From: an uncultured Clostridia bacterium
Lineage (GTDB): Bacteria; Bacillota; Clostridia; Oscillospirales; CAG-272
Assembly (NCBI GenBank): GCA_946410595.1
Contig: CAMKAU010000002.1
Coordinates: forward strand, 1,158 to 65,157
Length of the DNA: 64,000 bases
Direction: 5' to 3'
This document shows, one piece after another, positions 12,799 to 45,713 of the stretch (its first letter is position 1; each line of letters starts with the position of its first letter). The notes beneath the pieces were generated by a model. That model saw only the letters and a program-made list of their open reading frames with translations, ran no database searches and was not told the DNA's origin. The position numbers and the translations under genes are program-made.

Positions 12799-13437
12799 TC
12801 AGCGGTCGACGAGGATCAGATCCTTCAGCTTCATCAGCCGCGTGGTATTGCCCCGCTCGTTTTCGTCGAGCTTCATTGAGATCCGTTTGATCTCCGTTTC
12901 GTACTGCGGGATCATAATATACTCCAGCGCGTTGACGCGGCGGCGGGTACGCTCGATCTCCTCGGCGAGGAGAAGCGCCGTCTTCTCCCGCTCGGCAAGC
13001 AGGATCAGATCGGGCAGCAGCCGCGAGAGCGCGGCGACCGCCTCGTCGAGCTCCCCGGAGGTAAAGGCGAGGCCGTAGCCCGGCTCCCCCTCCGCTCCGG
13101 TCGAGAGAATGTCCGCCTGAAAGACGGGCACGGTAACCGACATCGTGTTCGCGTAGGAGACCTTCAGCTCCGCGCGTTTTTTCGGGATCGCCAGCGCCTC
13201 CCGCAGAAAACGGGGATCGGTGGTCGCGGCGGCGGCGGAAAAGGACCGATTGATCGCGTCCAGCTCCGCTTCAACCCGCTCGCGCAGTTCCTTGTTTTCC
13301 CGCACGGCGAGGAGAAAACGCCGCATCAGTTCGTCGCGCTTATCCTTGAGCAGCTTGTGCCCCCGGCGCGCCGTGGTGAGCCGACCCTTGAGCTTTTTCA
13401 GCTCCATGCGGGTCGGGTTGACATGTGCCATCGCCAT
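12799..13437 (-). CDS. ntpD: V-type ATP synthase subunit D
   Basis: 212 aa, NPTRMELKKLKGRLTTARRGHKLLKDKRDEL. Last gene of the ntp operon. Confidence 0.93.
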   Translation of the reverse strand: MAMAHVNPTRMELKKLKGRLTTARRGHKLLKDKRDELMRRFLLAVRENKELRERVEAELDAINRSFSAAAATTDPRFLREALAIPKKRAELKVSYANTMSVTVPVFQADILSTGAEGEPGYGLAFTSGELDEAVAALSRLLPDLILLAEREKTALLLAEEIERTRRRVNALEYIMIPQYETEIKRISMKLDENERGNTTRLMKLKDLILVDR

Positions 13438-13440
13438 CGC

Positions 13441-14847
13441 TTACGCTCCGACCGCGCCGCTGCCGGTCTCTTCTTCCTTCTTCGGCCAGTACCGCTCCAA
13501 AATCTCCGGCTTGATGCGCTTCATCTCGCTCTTCGGCAGGATGGAAAGCAGCTGCCAGCCGAGATCGAGCGTCTCCTCGATGCTCCGGTCCTCGGTAAAG
13601 CCCTGGTTGACGTAGCGTTTTTCAAACTCGTCGGCAAACTTGGCGTAGAGCCGGTCGATCGGCGTCAGCGCCGCCTCTCCGAGCACGACCATCAGTTCCT
13701 TTGCCTCCTTGCCTCGCGCGTAGGAGGAGAAGAGCTGGTTCATCGTGCCGGCGTGGTCCTCGCGGGTCTTCCCTTCTCCGATGCCCTTGTCCTTCAGACG
13801 GGAAAGGGAGGGGAGAACGTCCACCGGCGGCAGATAGCCCTTGCGGTAGATCTCGCGGGAGAGGATGATCTGACCCTCGGTGATATAGCCGGTCAGGTCG
13901 GGGATCGGATGGGTCTTGTCGTCCTCCGGCATCGAGAGGATCGGGATCATCGTGATCGAGCCCTCGCAGCCGACCTTACGGCCGGCGCGCTCGTACATCG
14001 TGGCAAGGTCGGTATAGAGGTAGCCGGGATAGCCGCGGCGGCCGGGGACCTCCTTGCGGGCGGCAGAGACCTCGCGGAGCGCCTCCGCGTAGTTGGTGAT
14101 ATCGGTCATGATGACGAGGACGTGCATCCCGCAGTCATAGGCGAGATATTCCGCCGCGGTCAGCGCCATACGGGGCGCGGAGATACGCTCGATGGCGGCG
14201 TCCGAGGCGAGGTTGATGAAGAGGACGGTGCGGTCGATCGCGCCGGTGCGGCGGAAATCGGAAATGAAGAAATCCGCTTCCTCGAAGGTGATGCCGACGG
14301 CGGCGAAGACAACGGCGAACCGACTGTCCGTGCCGCGGACCTTCGCCTGGCGGGCGATCTGCGCCGCGAGATTGGCGTGCGGCAGACCGGAGCCGGAAAA
14401 GATCGGCAGTTTCTGTCCGCGGACGAGGGTGTTGAGCCCGTCGATGGTGGAGATCCCCGTCTGGATGAACTCCGAGGGGTAGTTGCGCGCCGCCGGATTG
14501 ATCGGCGTGCCGTTGATATCCAGCGTTTTTTCGGGGATCAGGCGGGGGCCGCCGTCGATCGGCTCGCCCATGCCGGAGAAGACGCGCCCCAGCATATCGC
14601 GGGACACGGGCAGCTCCACGCCGTGGCCGACAAAGCGGACCTTGCTCTCCGCGAGGTTCATCCCGGCGGAGTTTTCAAAGAGCTGAACGAGGACGTTCGA
14701 GCCGTTGATCTCCAGCACGCGGCAGCGGCGGACCGAGCCGTCGGGAAGTTCGATCTCCCCCAGCTCGTCGTATTTGACGCCGTCCACCTGCTTGACCAGC
14801 ATCAGCGGGCCGGCTACTTCTTCGATCGTCTTAAATTCGCGTACCAT
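13441..14847 (-). CDS. ntpB: V-type ATP synthase subunit B
   Basis: 468 aa, typical non-catalytic B subunit ([29 protein letters not shown]). Confidence 0.95.
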
Positions 14848-39003: not shown

Positions 39004-39657
39004 ATGGCAAATCCTGATCTTTCCTCTATCGCTTCCCTGCTCTCCGGCGGCGGGATCTCCGCCATCAGCGAAAAGGTCGGCGCCAAAGAGGACCAGGTAA
39101 CGAGCGCCGTGACCGCCGCGCTGCCCGCGCTGATCTCCGGCATGAAGCAGAACGTCTCCACCGAGGCGGGCGCCGCCTCGCTTGCCGGCGCGCTCTCCGA
39201 CCACAAAAACGCCGACGTGAGCAACGTTGCCGCTTTCCTTAAAGGCGCGGATCTCACCGACGGCGCAAAGATCGTCTCCCATATCCTCGGCGGCAAGGAA
39301 AAGGCCGCCACCGCCGCCATCGCGGAAAAGAGCGGTCTCTCCTCCGCGAAGGTCACAAAGATCCTCTCGATGATCGCCCCGCTGCTGCTCTCTCTGCTCG
39401 GGAAAAAACAGGAGGAGACCTCGGCGGCGTCCACCTCCTCCGGCCTGACCGGGCTGCTCGGGAGCGTCCTCGGCGGCTCCGGCGGCTCGTCCGCGCTCGG
39501 CTCCCTCGCCTCCTCCGCCCTCGGCGGGCTCTTCGGCAGCGGATCCTCCGACTCCGCCGAAAGCGCCTCCGGCACGGGAAAAAAGAAGAAAAAGAAACAG
39601 GATGAGAAGAAAGAAGAAGGCGGGATCCTCGGCGGTCTGCTCAACCTCTTCAAATAA
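39004..39657 (+). CDS. DUF937-like protein
   Basis: Trimmed to the ATG at 39004 (MANPDLSSIASLLSGGGISAISEKVG...). Gly/Ser-rich with a Lys-rich tail. Confidence 0.6.
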   Translation: MANPDLSSIASLLSGGGISAISEKVGAKEDQVTSAVTAALPALISGMKQNVSTEAGAASLAGALSDHKNADVSNVAAFLKGADLTDGAKIVSHILGGKEKAATAAIAEKSGLSSAKVTKILSMIAPLLLSLLGKKQEETSAASTSSGLTGLLGSVLGGSGGSSALGSLASSALGGLFGSGSSDSAESASGTGKKKKKKQDEKKEEGGILGGLLNLFK

Positions 39658-39667
39658 AACAGCGCAA

Positions 39668-39694
39668 GAGGACCGCGGCGGCGCCGCGGTCCTC
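39668..39694 (+). terminator. GC hairpin after the DUF937 gene (weak terminator)
   Basis: gaggaccgcgg-cggcg-ccgcggtcctc, followed only by ttct. Confidence 0.35.
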
Positions 39695-39712
39695 TTCTCC
39701 AAAGGAAACCGT

Positions 39713-40273
39713 ATGAAAACAAACAAAAAGCAACTGCTTATCACCCTGCTGACGGTCCTTGCGATCCTTGCGGTCCTCGTCCTCCTGCCGAAGTTCGGCG
39801 GGAGCGCGGACGCGCCGGCGGGGGAGACGCTCGCGCTCCTGACCGGCGCGCGGGAAACGGCCGCGCCGGCGGCAACGGACGGCCCGGGCGGGGAAACGGC
39901 CGCGCCGGAGACGGAAGCGGGTCTTGACAAAACCGGCAGCTACACCTCCAAAGAGGACGTTGCGCTTTATCTCCATCTCTACGGCAAACTGCCGCCGAAC
40001 TTTATCACCAAGAGCGAGGCGCAGAAGCTCGGCTGGGACTCCGAAAAAGGCAATCTCGACCGGGTCGCGCCCGGCAAGTCGATCGGGGGCGACGTCTTCG
40101 GCAACCGAGAGGGGCTGCTCCCCGCCAAGGCGGGCCGGACTTATTATGAGTGCGACGTCGGTTACACCGGCGGCTACCGCGGCGGCGAGCGGATCGTCTA
40201 CTCAAACGACGGCTTGATCTACTACTCAAGCGATCACTACGCCAGTTTTACCCTGCTTTACGGAGAACCGTGA
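39713..40273 (+). CDS. Secreted/anchored barnase-family ribonuclease
   Basis: N-terminal TM/signal segment (LLITLLTVLAILAVLVLL). The C-terminal RTYYECDVGYTGGYRGGERIVYSNDGLIYYSSDHYASF aligns with barnase READINYTSGFRNSDRILYSSDWLIYKTTDHYQTF, with catalytic Glu and His retained. Confidence 0.85.
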   Translation: MKTNKKQLLITLLTVLAILAVLVLLPKFGGSADAPAGETLALLTGARETAAPAATDGPGGETAAPETEAGLDKTGSYTSKEDVALYLHLYGKLPPNFITKSEAQKLGWDSEKGNLDRVAPGKSIGGDVFGNREGLLPAKAGRTYYECDVGYTGGYRGGERIVYSNDGLIYYSSDHYASFTLLYGEP

Positions 40274-40536
40274 TGAAAAAGATCGTCTTAAACGGCAAAG
40301 AAATGAAGACCCGGGACGCCGCCTACGCCGCCCTCCGCGCGGCGCTCTCCCTGCCCGACTATTTCGGCGACAACCTCGACGCGCTCTACGACGTCCTCTC
40401 CGCGGCGGAGGGGGCGGTCGAGCTGAAAGGCACGGCGGCGATGCTCGGCGCCCTCGAGTCCTACGGCTGCAAGCTGCTCGCCTGCTTTTACGACGCGGCG
40501 CGGGAGAACCCGCGTTTTACCTTCCGCGCGCGCTGA
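40273..40536 (+). CDS. Barstar (barnase inhibitor)
   Basis: 87 aa. LPDYFGDNLDALYDVL matches barstar LPEYYGENLDALWDCL. The start overlaps the barnase stop (TGATG). Confidence 0.85.
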   Translation: MKKIVLNGKEMKTRDAAYAALRAALSLPDYFGDNLDALYDVLSAAEGAVELKGTAAMLGALESYGCKLLACFYDAARENPRFTFRAR

Positions 40537-40550
40537 ACACGCCTTCCCGC

Positions 40551-40587
40551 GCCGGGGCGGTCCGACCGACCGCCCCGGCTTTTTTTT
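40551..40587 (+). terminator. Intrinsic terminator (hairpin module H, copy 1)
   Basis: gccggggcgg-tccgaccga-ccgccccggc followed by T8. The identical hairpin recurs at 40709-40737 and 45587-45615. Confidence 0.7.
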
Positions 40588-40742
40588 CGGCGGGCGTGGT
40601 CTTTTTTCTGTAGGGCGGGGGTTTATCTCCCGCCGCAAAAATAAAAAACTACGCGGAAGGAGCAAGCCCCTTCCCTACAAACGCCGCTCCCGCCGGGCGC
40701 TATGCCGCGCCGGGGCGGTCCGACCGACCGCCCCGGCTTTTT
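40588..40742. repeat. Left copy of an approximately 155-bp direct repeat (REP/MITE-like core plus hairpin H)
   Basis: cggcgggcgtggtctttt..tgtagggcgggggtttatctcccgccgcaaaa..gcggaaggagcaagccccttccctacaaacgccgctcccgccgggcgctatgccgcgcc plus hairpin H. Nearly identical to 45466-45622, differing by a few indels or substitutions. Confidence 0.85.
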
Positions 40743-40793: not shown

Positions 40794-40822
40794 TTGACGA
40801 ACGCATTTTTCTATGATATATT
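40794..40822 (+). promoter_or_regulatory. Cassette promoter with extended -10
   Basis: TTGACG (40794-40799), 17-nt spacer, TGaTATATT (-10 at 40817-40822). Confidence 0.6.
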
Positions 40823-40865
40823 ATCTGTTAGTATCTTATGATTTTACGCAACGGAGGATTTGAAA

Positions 40866-41999
40866 ATGGCGCAAATTTGCGAAATACTCAAATACGAAGG
40901 CGATAACGGCACCTTCATCTGGAAGCACCCGTCCGAGGACTTCAACAGTCTGACGCAGCTGATCGTTCACGAATCGCAGGAGGCGATCTTCTTTCTCAAC
41001 GGTCAGGCGCTCGATCTGTTCGGCCCCGGGCGCTACACGCTGGAAACGCAGAATATCCCGAAGATCGGCAGCGTTCTGAACCGCGCGACGGGCGACAAAA
41101 CGCCCTTCCACTGCGAGGTCTACTTTATCAACAAGACCGAGCAGATGTCGATCAAATGGGGCACCGACAGCAAGGTGCAGTACATCGATCCGCAGTACGG
41201 ATTCCCGCTTGCGATCGGCGCCTCGGGCGAAATGTCGCTGCGCGCGGCGGACAGCCGCAAGCTGCTCGTGAAACTGGTTGGGACCGAGCGGGATCTCGGC
41301 CAGCAGAAGCTCGTTTCCTTCTTCCGCGCGTTTCTCATCACGCGCGTGAAAACCTATCTCGCCCAGACGATCAAGGCAAACGGCATCAGCATCTTTGAGA
41401 TCGACGAAAACCTCGCGGCGTTTTCCGCGAATATCCAGAAGCTCCTCGTCCCCGATTTTGCCGATTACGGTATTTCGCTTGAGCGCTTCTTCGTTACCAA
41501 TATCGTCAAACCGGACGGCGACCGGCAGTATGAAAAGTTCAAGGAGCTGCACTTCCGCCAGTACGCGGATATCGCCGAAGCGAAGCTCCGCCAGCAAACG
41601 GATATCATCTACGCGCAGACCGAGGCGCAGAAGGTCGTCATCGACTCTCAGGCGCAGGCGACCAAGCGGGCGCAGGAGGGCTACACCTACGCTCAGGAGC
41701 GCGGCTTTGACGTGGCGGAAAAGATCGCCGAAAACGAGGCGGTCGGTCAGTTTACCAATATGGGCGTCGGCCTCGGGACGATGGCGGGCGTCGGAGGCGC
41801 GGTCGGCGGGATGGTCGGCGGCGCGGTGAATACCGCGATGAACGCGGCGGCCGAGCCGGCCAAACCGGCAGGATCCGCGGACGATATGGCGGCTTTCAAA
41901 GCGAAGGTCGAAAAGCTGACCGTGATGAAGGAAGCCGGGCTGATCGGCGAAGAAGAGTTCAACCAGATGAAAGCCAAGCTGCTTTCCGAGATTCTGTAA
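40866..41999 (+). CDS. SPFH/band-7 protein of the YdjI/COG4260 type with Gly-rich segment and C-terminal SHOCT-like helix
   Basis: The ATG at 40866 lies 8 nt after GGAGGA. The N-terminus ILKYEGDNGTFIWKHPSEDFNSLTQLIVHESQEAIFFLNGQALDLFGPGRYTL is typical of COG4260. Also carries GVGLGTMAGVGGAVGGMVGG and the C-terminal KLTVMKEAGLIGEEEFNQMKAKLL. Confidence 0.85.
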   Translation: MAQICEILKYEGDNGTFIWKHPSEDFNSLTQLIVHESQEAIFFLNGQALDLFGPGRYTLETQNIPKIGSVLNRATGDKTPFHCEVYFINKTEQMSIKWGTDSKVQYIDPQYGFPLAIGASGEMSLRAADSRKLLVKLVGTERDLGQQKLVSFFRAFLITRVKTYLAQTIKANGISIFEIDENLAAFSANIQKLLVPDFADYGISLERFFVTNIVKPDGDRQYEKFKELHFRQYADIAEAKLRQQTDIIYAQTEAQKVVIDSQAQATKRAQEGYTYAQERGFDVAEKIAENEAVGQFTNMGVGLGTMAGVGGAVGGMVGGAVNTAMNAAAEPAKPAGSADDMAAFKAKVEKLTVMKEAGLIGEEEFNQMKAKLLSEIL

Positions 42000-42015
42000 A
42001 ACGGAGGACAAAACG

Positions 42016-42720
42016 ATGAAAAAGCATTTCGGTTTTTACGCGCTGCTCTGGGCGATCCTGCTTGCCCTGTTCTGCCTGGCCGTTTTCCTTGTCCGGTCGG
42101 TGATCCCCGGCTATGAGATCCGCTACGACGCGTGGTTCTGGATCGCGTTTGCGTTTATCCTTGCCGCTTTTATCGGCAATCTCGTTTGCGCTTATTTCGC
42201 GTTCAAAGCGAAAAACCTCAAAAAGATGTTTCTGAATCTCCCGCTGATCACGGTAAGCCGGGCGGCTCTGATCGCTATGCTGATCGTCGGCTCCGGGCTT
42301 ATGCTGATTCCGAACTGCCCCGCATGGATCGCGGCGATCGTTTGCATCCTCCTGTTTGCCTTCAACGCCGTTGCCGTTATCAAAGCGGTGTGGGCGGCGG
42401 ATACGGTAAACAATGTCGATGAAAAGATCAAAGCGAACACTTCTTTTATCAAGCGCGTTACGGTAGACGCCGAGTGCCTGATCTCCCGCGCCCGGAGCGA
42501 CGAAACCCGCGCGGCGTGCAAAGCGGTCTATGAAGCGGCGCGGTATTCCGATCCCACGTCCGACGACGCGCTCTCCCTGACCGAGGCGAAGATCACCGTG
42601 AAGATGGACGAGCTCGCCGAGGCGGTCGCCTCCGACAACGCGGAAGCGGCCGGCGCCGCCGCGCAGGAGCTGAAAACGCTCTTTGACGAACGCGCCGCGC
42701 GCTGCAAATCTCTGAAATAA
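42016..42720 (+). CDS. Four-TM membrane protein with cytoplasmic helical tail, no recognised family
   Basis: 234 aa. GGAGGA lies 7 nt upstream. Four hydrophobic segments are followed by an Ala/Glu-rich C-terminal 100 aa. Confidence 0.7.
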   Translation: MKKHFGFYALLWAILLALFCLAVFLVRSVIPGYEIRYDAWFWIAFAFILAAFIGNLVCAYFAFKAKNLKKMFLNLPLITVSRAALIAMLIVGSGLMLIPNCPAWIAAIVCILLFAFNAVAVIKAVWAADTVNNVDEKIKANTSFIKRVTVDAECLISRARSDETRAACKAVYEAARYSDPTSDDALSLTEAKITVKMDELAEAVASDNAEAAGAAAQELKTLFDERAARCKSLK

Positions 42721-42754
42721 AAGACCCGAAATAATCCGATCCGAGGAGTTCAGT

Positions 42755-45412
42755 ATGGCGATCTTCAAGTGTAAAATGTGCGGAGGAACGCTCGAGTTTG
42801 CCGAGGGCGCGACCGTCGGCGTGTGCGACAGCTGCGGCACAAGACAGACGCTGCCGCGCGCGGCGGACGACCTGACCGCCAACCTCTTTAACCGCGCGAA
42901 CAACCTCCGTCTGAAATGCGAGTTCGACAAGGCCGCCGCGCTCTACGAAAAGATCGTGGAGCAGGACGACGCGAACGCCGAGGCGCACTGGGGGATCGTC
43001 CTCTGCAAATACGGGATCGAATACGTGGAGGATCCCAAGACCCATACCCGCGTCCCGACCTGCCACCGCACTCTCTACGAGGCGGTCTCGACGGACGCGG
43101 ACTACCTTGCCGCCGTGGATTACGGCGACGCGGCGCAGCAAACGCTCTACGAGAACGAGGCGCGGGCGATCGACCGGATCCAGAAGAATATCCTCTCTAT
43201 CGTGAAAAACGAAAAACCGTTCGACGTTTTTCTCTGCTATAAAGAAACCGATGAAAACGGCAAGCGGACGGTGGACAGCGCGCTTGCCAACGATATATAC
43301 TACCAGCTGACCGGCGAGGGGTTTAAGGTCTTTTTTGCGGCGATCACGCTGGAGGACAAGCTGGGGCAGGAATACGAGCCCTATATCTTTGCGGCGCTCC
43401 ATTCCGCGCGGGTGATGCTGGCGATCGGAACGAAGCCGGAATACTTCTCCTCCGTGTGGGTGAAAAACGAGTGGTCGCGCTTTCTCGCTTTGATGAAGAC
43501 CGACCGCTCCAAGCTCCTGATCCCCTGCTACCGGGATATGGACCCCTACGATCTGCCGGAGGAGTTTGCCCATCTGCAGGCGCAGGATATGGGCAAGATC
43601 GGCTTTATCAACGACCTCTCCCGCGGGATCAAAAAGGTCTGCTCCTCCGGGAGCGGTAAGGCCCCCGTCCGCGAAACAGTGGTCGTTCCCGCCGGGAACG
43701 TCAATACCGCGCCGCTGCTGAAACGCGCCTTTCTTTTCCTGGAAGACGGCGAGTGGGACGAAGCGGACGCCTACTGCGAAAAGGTGCTCGATCAGGACCC
43801 GGAAAACGCGCAGGCGTATCTCGGCAAGCTGATGGCGGAGCTGCGCGTCCACCGGGAGGAGGATCTCGCCGACTGCGAGCAGCCCTTTGACGGCAGCAAC
43901 AACTACCAGAAGGCCGTGCGCTTCGGCGGGGAGAAGGTCGCCGCCGCGCTGGGCGGCTATCTTACGCATATCGTTGAGCGCAACGAGCAGGCGAGAGTGA
44001 CGGAACTTTACAACAAAGCTCTCTTCACTATGGAAACGGCAAAAAGCGAAACGGATTATAAAACCGCCGCCGAGCTCTTTGGATACCTGGAAGATTATCT
44101 TGACTCTCCCGTTCGCGCGGCGCAATGTCTGGAAAAAGCGGAAATCTGCCGCAAAGACGGGATCTATCAATTTGCCAAACAGGCGATGGATACCACCTAC
44201 CGCTACGCGACGGACGAGCTGGAACAGGCGCTTTCTCTTTTCCAGAAGATACCGGGGTATCGGGACGCCGACGATTTGGCGGAAGCATGCCAAAACAGGA
44301 TTCTTGAGATCAAAGAGGAGAAAGAAAGAGAACAGATCAATGCAACTGCACGCACAAAAAAAGCCAATATTGGCATATTTGCAATTCTATCTCTCGTCAT
44401 TCTTCTTGTTTTCTTTATTCTATTGTTTAATGTCTTTCTCCCGAATGCAAAGTACAATACCGCTGTAGATCTCTATAACGCTGGGAAATATGAAGAAGCT
44501 ATTGCGTTGTTTGAGGCGTTGGGGGAGTATGAAGATAGCCCATGGCAAATCACAAAATGTAAACAAGATGCAAAGTACAATGAGGGGCTTAAACTGTATA
44601 ATGCCGGAGAATACGAGAAAGCAATCACCGTTTTTGCTTCATTAGACGGCTATAAAGATAGTGAAAATCAAATCAAAAAGTGCGAAATTGCCATTAAAGA
44701 TCCCCAGTATAATGCAGCAATCGCATTAATTGATCAAGGAGATTTTATCAATGCATATGAAACTTTAATTTCATTGAATCGCTATAAAGATAGCGCCGAA
44801 AAAGCAAAAGAAATAATTGTTAAATATAAGATTGCAAAGATTAGATCTGCTTCTGTCGGAGATATAGTGTTTTTTGGGTCATATGAACAGGATAATAATG
44901 CATCAAACGGCAAAGAAGAAATCGAATGGCTTGTTCTTGCAAAAGAAACTAATAAAGTTTTTTTGATCAGTAAATACGCGCTTGATTGTCAGCGATACAA
45001 TTCATCTTATACGTCCGTAACTTGGGAAACTTGTTCTCTTCGCATATGGTTAAACAATACGTTTATCAGCGCTGCATTTAGTTTTGAGGAGCGGAATAGT
45101 ATCATTAGTTCCGTTATCTCGGTATATACTGGCCATAATACGATTGATAAATTATTCCTTCTTAACATTTCAGAAGCAAACAGATTTTTCAATTCAGATA
45201 AAGAGCGCCAATGTGAAGGAACGGTGTACTGCTATGCGCAAGGCGCTTATAAAGCCGACAATGGCAATTGCTGGTGGTGGCTACGGTCGTTTGGTGATTC
45301 TTCTAACTATACTGCAGATGTTTTTAGTGGCGGCTCCACCTATGATCTAGGGCCTCATGTCAATGACAATGATGGCGGTGTTCGCCCCGCGATGTGGATC
45401 GATCTTTCTTAA
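42755..45412 (+). CDS. Zn-ribbon / TPR-like / TIR domain / single TM / repeat / DUF6273-like multidomain protein
   Basis: 885 aa. Zn ribbon CKMCGG..CDSCG. TIR: FDVFLCYKETDE...GFKVFFA...SARVMLAIGT...SSVWVKNEW (Glu239). TM at residues 538-563. C-terminus FFGSYEQDN..EEIEWLVL..SKYALDC..VTWETCSLRIWLN..WWWLRS..GVRPAMWI. Confidence 0.85.
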   Translation: MAIFKCKMCGGTLEFAEGATVGVCDSCGTRQTLPRAADDLTANLFNRANNLRLKCEFDKAAALYEKIVEQDDANAEAHWGIVLCKYGIEYVEDPKTHTRVPTCHRTLYEAVSTDADYLAAVDYGDAAQQTLYENEARAIDRIQKNILSIVKNEKPFDVFLCYKETDENGKRTVDSALANDIYYQLTGEGFKVFFAAITLEDKLGQEYEPYIFAALHSARVMLAIGTKPEYFSSVWVKNEWSRFLALMKTDRSKLLIPCYRDMDPYDLPEEFAHLQAQDMGKIGFINDLSRGIKKVCSSGSGKAPVRETVVVPAGNVNTAPLLKRAFLFLEDGEWDEADAYCEKVLDQDPENAQAYLGKLMAELRVHREEDLADCEQPFDGSNNYQKAVRFGGEKVAAALGGYLTHIVERNEQARVTELYNKALFTMETAKSETDYKTAAELFGYLEDYLDSPVRAAQCLEKAEICRKDGIYQFAKQAMDTTYRYATDELEQALSLFQKIPGYRDADDLAEACQNRILEIKEEKEREQINATARTKKANIGIFAILSLVILLVFFILLFNVFLPNAKYNTAVDLYNAGKYEEAIALFEALGEYEDSPWQITKCKQDAKYNEGLKLYNAGEYEKAITVFASLDGYKDSENQIKKCEIAIKDPQYNAAIALIDQGDFINAYETLISLNRYKDSAEKAKEIIVKYKIAKIRSASVGDIVFFGSYEQDNNASNGKEEIEWLVLAKETNKVFLISKYALDCQRYNSSYTSVTWETCSLRIWLNNTFISAAFSFEERNSIISSVISVYTGHNTIDKLFLLNISEANRFFNSDKERQCEGTVYCYAQGAYKADNGNCWWWLRSFGDSSNYTADVFSGGSTYDLGPHVNDNDGGVRPAMWIDLS

Positions 45413-45426
45413 AAAACGGCAACAGA

Positions 45427-45464
45427 CACGCAGGCAAAGCGCAACGCTTTGCCTGCGTGTTTTT
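45427..45464 (+). terminator. Cassette intrinsic terminator
   Basis: Perfect 15-bp stem cacgcaggcaaagcg-caa-cgctttgcctgcgtg followed by T5, 15 nt after the TIR gene stop. Confidence 0.75.
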
Positions 45465-45465
45465 C

Positions 45466-45622
45466 CGGCGGGCGTGGTCTTTTCCTTGTAGGGCGGGGGT
45501 TTATCTCCCGCCGCAAAATAAAAAAACTGCGCGGAAGGAGCAAGCCCCTTCCCTACAAACGCCGCTCCCGCCGGGCGCTATGCCGCGCCGGGGCGGTCCG
45601 ACCGACCGCCCCGGCTTTTTTT
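45466..45622. repeat. Right copy of the approximately 155-bp direct repeat (core plus hairpin H plus T7)
   Basis: See 40588-40742. Hairpin H at 45587-45615 followed by T7. Confidence 0.85.
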
Positions 45623-45713
45623 GCGGCGGGCGGCGGTTTTTTCATATTTCGCGGCGGGGGCGCATAGGATAGAACAGACGGCGGCGAGAAGACCGCCCGC
45701 AAAGAGGAAAGTT

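Follow-up and report, generated by a model that had tools for sequence, protein, structure and literature searches.

The stretch of DNA examined in this work, referred to as the window, comprises 64,000 nucleotides from an uncultured Clostridia bacterium (contig CAMKAU010000002.1, positions 1,158 to 65,157 of the forward strand), and its coordinates are counted here from its first letter. It contains three same-strand open reading frames (ORFs), which we call A, B and C, that occupy 40860-45412 and are separated by gaps of only 16 and 34 nt. Gene A (40866..41999, + strand) encodes an SPFH protein of 377 aa; its ORF spans 40860-41999, and the likely true start is the ATG at 40866, 8 nt past the sequence GGAGGA. 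Gene B (42016..42720, +) encodes a protein of 234 aa with four transmembrane (TM) helices and a cytoplasmic helical bundle, and gene C (42755..45412, +) encodes a protein of 885 aa that carries a TIR domain. Shine-Dalgarno sites (GGAGG/GAGGAG) precede the starts of all three. Upstream of A, at 40794..40822 (+), lies a putative sigma-70-type promoter, recognised by its consensus match (TTGACG-17-TATATT, with the TG of an extended -10 element); it agrees with the consensus at 10 of 12 positions and shares the top score within the 7.5 kb scanned. Just past the stop codon of C, at 45424..45464 (+), is an intrinsic terminator with a hairpin of 15-18 bp followed by UUUUU (-35.4 kcal/mol, z = -5.96). 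A preliminary description of this DNA had listed the promoter, the three ORFs with their Shine-Dalgarno sites and gaps, the terminator and a pair of flanking repeats, all of which are present. The tight spacing, single promoter-like site and single strong terminator also bear out its view that A, B and C are one compact operon.

The product of gene A matches the Pfam family Band_7_1 (5e-39; 134.6 bits against a cutoff of 24), which we take to be the YdjI-type family. It is a peripheral SPFH protein with a Gly/Ala-rich segment and no predicted TM helix, and it ends in a SHOCT-like helix whose Pfam match is below threshold (1.1e-05; 25.4 bits against a 27-bit cutoff). A search of PDB sequences with A gave no match. 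Gene B has no family match above threshold in Pfam, NCBIfam, PADLOC or PHROGs, and PDB fold and profile searches with its model and alignment returned noise only, with no recognisable nucleotide-binding fold. The structure model of B (predicted local distance difference test score, pLDDT, 78) shows four TM helices and an all-helical cytoplasmic bundle. This cytoplasmic domain is strongly conserved among homologues and holds the invariant motif of the family, C-K-x-V-x-E-A-x-R-Y-S-D-P. The family is large, with 852 word-sharing homologues and 2,635 clusters at 50% identity. Four of its representatives (P0314, P0249, P0308 and P0245) are fusion proteins, the fused parts being an N-terminal Ser/Thr protein kinase or C-terminal RCC1 repeats, a trypsin-like peptidase or Listeria-Bacteroides repeats. 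The existence of kinase-B and other B fusions suggests that B is a reusable membrane signalling module.

Gene C can be divided into a constant head, a TM helix and a tail. The head (42755..44365, +), about 540 residues long and predicted to be cytoplasmic, consists of a CxxC...CxxC zinc ribbon, TPR-like helices, a TIR_2 domain and further TPRs. The TIR_2 domain covers residues 158-280 (Pfam, 3.7e-11) and has TPRs on both sides; the zinc ribbon gives a weak Pfam match, and conservation of its CxxC...CxxC pattern among relatives is 90% or higher. Residue Glu239 sits in the sequence SSVWVKNEW, which aligns with the motifs SCWCQYEL and SKWCLMEL of the TIR domains of Toll-like receptors (TLRs) and of plant L6, the L6 motif containing the plant catalytic Glu. 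Of 78 distinct relatives, 98.7% retain Glu239 and the motif VWVKNEWSR. The best PDB sequence match of the domain is the TIR of TLR15/TLR2 (E = 0.005). Judged from these alignments, Glu239 appears to be of the catalytic type, and the head is predicted to be an enzymatically active TIR protein.

A single TM helix (44366..44440, +; residues ~538-562) follows the head and is preceded by the residues RTKK. The positive-inside rule, the Cys4 ribbon and the typically extracellular nature of the tail domains all point to an N-in/C-out topology, with the head of C predicted to lie in the cytoplasm and the tail outside. No signal peptide, sortase motif or cell-wall anchor was found in C, the type II TM helix being its only such feature. 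The putative ectodomain (44441..45412, +) consists of TPR-like repeats (motif G-x-Y-x-x-A...Y-K-D-S) followed by a lectin-like DUF6273 domain at residues 733-883 (Pfam, 1.4e-21). DUF6273 has a C-type-lectin-like fold and is a frequent target of diversity-generating retroelements (DGRs) in the receptor-binding proteins of gut phages (PMC10743442, PMC11792537, bioRxiv 10.1101/2024.10.15.618418). The ectodomain model (pLDDT 93) matches phage DUF6273 proteins with E values from 1.5e-08, and its best PDB match is 9qa6 (6.8e-07), the DUF6273 N-terminal domain of an IgA peptidase of Thomasclavelia ramosa (PMC12402451).

The boundary between head and tail can also be seen in the DNA. The head of gene C has a GC content at third codon positions (GC3) of 0.76, against 0.34 for the sequence beginning with the TM helix, and the switch lies near 44300, at the TM boundary; overall GC is about 0.6 and drops to 0.29-0.41 within 44300-45200. 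In the syntenic locus L087, the closest relative (about 80% DNA identity), the head is 81% identical to that of the window up to 44325, where the homology ends together with the GC3 switch. Because the compositional break and the loss of homology to L087 coincide at the TM boundary, gene C of the window seems to be a chimera whose ectodomain was recently replaced from a low-GC donor. The same GC3 drop is present in the C genes of other high-GC loci.

In order to survey the operon in other genomes, B was used to scan one genome per GTDB species, which gave 80 loci, all of them found through B and with their ORFs called mechanically. By label, nearly all of these loci (cited here by L numbers) come from metagenome-assembled genomes of the class Clostridia, including Oscillospiraceae, Lachnospiraceae, Ruminococcus, Roseburia, Agathobacter and others; the non-Clostridia labels are one Erysipelotrichaceae bin and two Bacteroidales bins (Bacteroidaceae, L072, and Sodaliphilus, L083). 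The preliminary description treated the three genes as a unit, and their co-occurrence in other genomes agrees with this. All 80 loci have gene A no more than 3.5 kb from B, and in 75 of them the distance is at most 60 nt; a TIR-bearing C-like gene is present in 50 of the 57 loci that have at least 3.5 kb of downstream sequence, eight of which have two or more such genes. The linkage of A, B and C persists when the identity of B falls to 41%, and it is seen in many genomic settings that are unrelated to one another. In a converse check, C-like proteins were chosen by a search with the head of C, independently of B, and all three adjoin an A-B pair. Elsewhere the third position is taken by a protein without a TIR domain: five of the 57 loci have only TIR-less relatives of C, which are zinc ribbon/TM/DUF6273 proteins in L063, L075 and L086, a TPR/multi-TM/DUF6273 protein without the ribbon in L034 and an RCC1-repeat relative in L078, while two of the 57 have TPR proteins instead.

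The surroundings of the module are diverse. They include integrase/recombinase islands (L003, L088), a position directly after rplL (L005, 6099-6476) and the barstar site shared by the window and L087. In L001 (546-15133 of a 269-kb contig) the module stands between DNA polymerase A/VapE-like and capsid-type genes, with a small XRE-type helix-turn-helix (HTH) gene ahead of it, and a prophage is the likely location of this copy. The 150 neighbouring ORFs that were sampled matched 148 Pfam families, foremost among them tyrosine integrases and XRE HTH proteins. Between B and C, which are 34 nt apart with no gene between them in the window, other genomes have 0-2 kb of unrelated small genes (for example L088, 4165-4800; L022, 8699-9376; L087, 9481-9987; and L047, 8696-9601). 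Their products include a DUF2971 protein, a weak HEPN-like match, a weak holin-like match and many without any family. A conserved fourth component at this position was considered and rejected, as the 48 ORFs found in these gaps form small unrelated clusters.

Behind the constant head the tails of C-like proteins vary widely. Besides DUF6273 they include BspA-type leucine-rich repeats (LRRs) with Listeria-Bacteroides repeats (LRR_5 and Flg_new; L012 and L074), RCC1 repeats and a TPM domain (P0123), and one strong predicted TM segment separates head from tail in the LRR, RCC1, TPM and DGR-targeted DUF6273 examples that were checked. Tandem C paralogues occur in some related loci. One C-like protein, encoded at 8966-10930 of L003, ends in a ribosomal L7/L12 C-terminal domain (2e-19) and not in a surface domain, and it has two to three weaker TM segments; it may be a by-product of recombination or a cytoplasmic sensor variant.

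In four related loci the TIR gene is followed immediately by a DGR, composed of an RVT_1 reverse transcriptase and a template repeat/variable repeat (TR/VR) pair that targets the 3' end of the DUF6273 coding region: L038 (5277-7355), L051 (12011-14064), L059 (11695-12523) and L079 (11564-13653). The VR is the last ~125 nt of the DUF6273 region of the TIR gene, and the mismatches between TR and VR fall at template adenines in 19 of 19, 16 of 17, 18 of 21 and 18 of 20 cases. The stretch CWWWLRS...VRPA of the window C corresponds to the VR of these relatives. A DGR within the window itself was looked for and rejected, since neither a TR/VR pair nor a reverse transcriptase-like ORF was found there.

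A second kind of variation concerns the promoter. In many loci a tyrosine recombinase gene and perfect inverted repeats lie upstream of A, the repeats enclosing a segment of about 160-290 bp; they have the core ACATAAT-N5-ATTATGT, and a similar core occurs in at least 12 species loci, where a switch of this kind is likely. This invertible promoter segment, or inverton, is placed between a gene for a 280-aa tyrosine recombinase and A in L088 (1859-2155), L090 (2337-2633) and L003 (6518-6798). L088 and L090 are from two assemblies of one species and have identical flanks. The sole difference between them is an exact inversion of the 245-bp segment bounded by 26-nt perfect inverted repeats, and it is in the L090 orientation alone that a promoter-like site points towards A. 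The exact inversion indicates that the module is phase-variable in those genomes. Inverton and DGR are found together in L051 and L079. An inverton in the window was rejected, as there is no recombinase and there are no such inverted repeats upstream of its gene A. Taken together, the chimeric ectodomain, the DGRs, the invertons and the tandem paralogues argue for recognition of a variable ligand outside the cell rather than for a response to generic membrane stress.

The operon of the window is bracketed by direct repeats of 161 nt that are 96% identical (40582-40742 and 45460-45620). In the whole window a 29-nt hairpin has just three copies, at 40551, 40709 and 45587, where none would be expected by chance; each is terminator-like, a stem of 12 bp (11 of them GC) with a T-run behind it. 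Copies of the hairpin-plus-spacer unit, 2.5 in all, are confined to the surroundings of the operon. The upstream block (40551..40742, +) consists of hairpin H1 (40551-40579), spacer X1 and hairpin H2 (40709-40737) and includes the left 161-nt copy, while the downstream block (45460..45657, +; repeat families D1 and D6) consists of spacer X2 (the right 161-nt copy), hairpin H3 (45587-45615) and part of a third unit, which has diverged. Directly upstream of the operon, at 39602-40536, are genes for a barnase-like ribonuclease and a barstar, which overlap by 1 nt and are syntenic in L087, where their products match the Pfam families Ribonuclease and Barstar. An exact look-up of the window barstar, aimed at finding an empty site, gave no match. 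An AAA_14/DUF4143 ATPase gene (12927-14177, - strand) lies between C and the DUF4830 gene in L087; it is absent from the window, which has the right repeat block there instead.

The operon had been described in the preliminary work as an autonomous cassette flanked by repeats, and this was not upheld. Since L087 carries the module at the same barnase/barstar...DUF4830 site without the repeats, the latter are not demonstrated ends of a mobile cassette. The 29-nt hairpin had no match in JGI metagenome contigs, and the 161-nt repeat gave no high-scoring segment pair among 86 related loci (L001-L086) and no match to the repeat region in L087, so that a common dispersed element or a shared att site finds no support. 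The repeats may have arisen by local duplication, as a footprint of recombination or as a private repeat element.

No complete known system was expected at this locus, and this expectation held in the PADLOC and literature searches. PADLOC 2.0 models gave no match to A, B or C, and the NCBIfam model for Thoeris ThcB4 gave a match of 21 bits, far below its 220-bit cutoff. For none of the three proteins did NCBIfam or PHROGs yield a match that passed threshold. In the literature searched there was no paper combining SPFH, a TIR domain and anti-phage defence, and no SPFH and TIR module has been described there. The sole paper found in which the terms 'Band-7', 'TIR' and 'SHOCT' occur together (PMC11237479) was set aside, as TIR in it refers to the CesT/Tir chaperone and not to a TIR domain. 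A systematic survey of TIR systems from 2025 (bioRxiv 10.64898/2025.12.03.692087) makes no mention, in its text or in four of its supplements, of SPFH, Band_7, SHOCT or DUF6273. We conclude that the module is not a member of any named system and that it combines features of TIR conflict or signalling systems with those of SPFH membrane pairs.

Thoeris loci can combine a single effector with multiple thsB genes. The module shares with the TIR anti-phage types I-XI a TIR domain with the conserved catalytic-type Glu and a constant partner accompanied by one or several variable TIR genes. Like them it occurs in mobile contexts, and TM proteins can be effectors in these systems, according to the survey (bioRxiv 10.64898/2025.12.03.692087). 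Unlike in Thoeris, the TIR protein of the module is predicted to span the membrane and to carry a large exchangeable domain outside, so that sensing would be extracellular. Its partner is an SPFH and 4-TM pair that matches no Thoeris effector model and is absent from the survey text and tables that were searched. None of the known Thoeris effector families (SIR2-SLOG, Macro-TM, caspase-like, DUF2270, SLATT and others) was recognised in A, B or C by Pfam or PADLOC.

A second point of comparison is the pspA-ydjGHI operon of Bacillus subtilis, part of a type of Firmicute operon that encodes PspA, a band-7 protein, a zinc ribbon-TM protein (YdjG) and a TPM protein (YdjH) (PMC11237479). Both have a Band_7_1-type SPFH protein and a zinc ribbon protein with a TM segment, and both occur in Firmicutes; the TPM domain of YdjH is also the ectodomain of the C variant P0123, whereas the window has no TPM domain. 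The module differs in that it lacks PspA, that its middle gene encodes an unannotated 4-TM protein and not a TPM protein, and that its zinc ribbon protein carries a TIR domain, TPRs and a variable ectodomain. YdjG-type proteins have two zinc ribbons, an NTF2-like domain and a TM segment; in C, a single conserved CxxC...CxxC ribbon is seen together with a TM helix. In addition, the module is mobile, phase-variable and targeted by DGRs in relatives. No PspA/IM30 protein was found in the window operon, in the gene tables of related loci or among the 25 most frequent Pfam families of the 150 neighbours. The idea, put forward in the preliminary description, that an SPFH and zinc ribbon membrane pair has gained a TIR and an outside domain fits the TIR-less zinc ribbon/TM/DUF6273 variants found beside A-B and the TPM variant.

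DGR-diversified C-type-lectin sensors of conflict systems have been described in multicellular bacteria (PMC10907252). They resemble the module in that a C-terminal lectin-fold VR is hypermutated by a DGR, in that they are linked to effectors including TIR, and in their proposed role as antigen sensors. They are, however, mostly cytoplasmic STAND-NTPase or MoxR/vWA proteins of Proteobacteria and Cyanobacteria, whereas the module has a predicted single-pass membrane receptor with an SPFH/4-TM partner and no NTPase, is found in gut Clostridia and, in the window, lacks a DGR. The predicted arrangement of outside ligand-binding repeats (LRRs in L012 and L074), one TM helix and a cytoplasmic TIR is also that of animal TLRs. 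The orientation is reversed in the module, where the TIR is N-terminal in a type II protein, the enzyme-type Glu is kept and the LRRs are BspA-type; the likeness is one of analogy, and common descent of the whole architecture is not implied. In the SPFH-NfeD operons of stomatins and flotillins, too, an SPFH gene is tightly coupled to an adjoining gene for a small multi-TM partner, but B has no NfeD match (no Pfam match above noise), and its modelled cytoplasmic domain is helical and not a beta-barrel. The 2TM-1TM-TIR system of phage-satellite hotspots consists of two small TM proteins and a TIR protein. In the module, unlike in that system, the TIR protein would itself span the membrane and an SPFH protein is present. 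PADLOC 2.0, which may or may not include models for that system, gave no match.

Our preferred reading, which we hold with confidence and reservation in equal measure, is that the operon is a membrane signalling module of gut Clostridia in which a constant SPFH/4-TM core is combined with a receptor-like C protein acting as a phase-variable, diversifying surface sensor with a TIR output. A and B would make up the core, with one or more receptor-like C proteins alongside. Each C protein would cross the membrane once, placing an exchangeable ligand-binding domain outside and the zinc ribbon, TPRs and TIR inside. A multivalent ligand outside the cell (a phage particle, for instance, or some other structure borne on a surface or a glycan) could cluster C and bring TIR domains together, thereby turning on NAD+ cleavage, and this would lead either to NAD+ depletion or to a nucleotide signal. 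A possible role for the A-B pair could be that of a scaffold beneath the membrane that holds, restrains or reads out C, with B as a candidate signal-responsive membrane effector. If so, one core with several variable TIR sensors would resemble Thoeris. A role in defence is plausible. A role against phages in particular is less certain than the general model because there is no clear defence-island signal, because viral contigs lack the module and because invertons, DGRs, LRRs and lectin domains fit adhesins equally. A bolder version of the proposal, which is possible but which we advance only tentatively, is that the modules are a widespread and undescribed class of surface immune receptors in gut Clostridia, in which single-pass membrane proteins would bind extracellular ligands, phage particles among them, by a swappable and sometimes DGR-hypermutated ectodomain (lectin-like, LRR or RCC1) that would signal to an enzymatic TIR within an SPFH/4-TM microdomain, as a functional analogue of a TLR.

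Several points weigh against the preferred reading. The topology of C, its ligand, the activity of its TIR domain, the role of A-B and any function in defence are parts of it that we infer. In about seven of the 57 loci the third protein beside A-B has no TIR domain, being of a zinc ribbon-only or TPR-only kind, so the A-B core does not strictly need a TIR. On the side of C, the converse check of linkage is limited to three C-like genes, and the C-head family has at least 8,000 matches against 852 for the B family as sampled. The preliminary description had proposed a check for enrichment near defence islands, and among the 150 sampled neighbours there was no clear signal of this kind; PADLOC matches were mostly to generic HTH-type models, with a few scattered defence candidates (SoFic twice and PDC-S04 twice). 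A scan of IMG/VR viral contigs with the B alignment revealed no confirmed relative, so that routine carriage by phages is not supported despite the prophage-like copy in L001. Finally, adhesins and surface antigens just as typically show phase variation, DGRs and LRR or lectin ectodomains.

This last point leads to the rival explanation that survives best, although we think it unlikely: the operon could be a phase-variable surface adhesin or antigen locus, in which C binds host mucus, IgA, glycans or cells, A-B places C in the membrane, and the TIR head provides anchoring, oligomerisation or physiological signalling and not immunity. The invertons and tyrosine recombinases upstream of A in relatives, the DGR targeting, the tandem paralogues and the swapping of ectodomains all speak for such a locus. 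Its ectodomains (BspA-type LRR, Flg_new, RCC1 and DUF6273) are surface modules of a kind typical for Firmicutes, the best PDB match is to a domain of an IgA peptidase (PMC12402451), TIR-less variants exist, and a clear defence-island context is lacking. What a pure adhesin hardly explains is a 540-residue cytoplasmic head with a near-invariant catalytic-type Glu and a zinc ribbon. C also has a type II TM helix in place of a signal peptide, sortase motif or cell-wall anchor, and the strict coupling of A and B would require a further explanation.

Quite unlikely, in our estimate, is a strictly Thoeris-like mode of signalling, which is a sub-case of the preferred reading. C would be a ThsB-type signal producer, and B, gated by A, an effector that binds the TIR product with its cytoplasmic RYSDP bundle and disrupts the membrane. 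The constant A-B core with one to three variable TIR genes and the high conservation of the cytoplasmic domain of B suit this scheme, as does the survey result that TM proteins or DUFs account for many of the newly defined Thoeris effectors (bioRxiv 10.64898/2025.12.03.692087). Against it, no Thoeris effector or ThsB model was above threshold (21 against 220 bits for ThcB4), and Band_7, SPFH and DUF6273 are never mentioned in the text and searched supplements of the same survey. Moreover, TIR-less loci retain A-B, and B has no recognisable nucleotide-binding fold.

We regard as distinctly improbable the explanation that the operon is an envelope-stress or membrane-maintenance module akin to pspA-ydjGHI of B. 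subtilis, in which the SPFH and zinc ribbon proteins repair the membrane and the TIR is a lineage-specific addition. The mobility, phase variation, DGR targeting and ectodomain swapping of the module would be unexpected for a housekeeping stress system, no PspA gene appears in the related-locus gene tables or among the 25 top Pfam families of the 150 neighbours, and B is neither a TPM nor an NfeD protein. The membership of A in Band_7_1, the Firmicute PspA/band-7/YdjG/YdjH operon (PMC11237479), the TPM ectodomain of P0123 and the TIR-less zinc ribbon/TM variants are the observations that speak for it. That A, B and C are chance neighbours or are merely co-transcribed, with unrelated functions, deserves next to no credence: the B-C gap does take unrelated cargo genes in other genomes, but the co-occurrence of A with B (75/80) and of C-like genes (50/57), at identities of B down to 41%, contradicts it.

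The preferred reading, that of a membrane signalling module with a surface sensor, would have consequences for how TIR proteins are seen in bacteria. To our knowledge, the bacterial TIR systems described so far sense infection inside the cell. If C is indeed a TIR protein with a sensor domain outside the membrane, prokaryotic TIR signalling would extend to recognition at the cell surface. Three routes of variation act on this one module, namely module swapping, hypermutation by DGRs and the on/off switching of a promoter, and their combination makes it well suited to studying how receptors diversify in abundant gut commensals. The operon also provides a first functional context for B, a large unannotated family, and assigns the clostridial Band_7_1/SHOCT proteins to a defined module. 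Should the surface-receptor reading be true, these bacteria would possess a functional analogue of Toll-like receptors with built-in receptor diversification.

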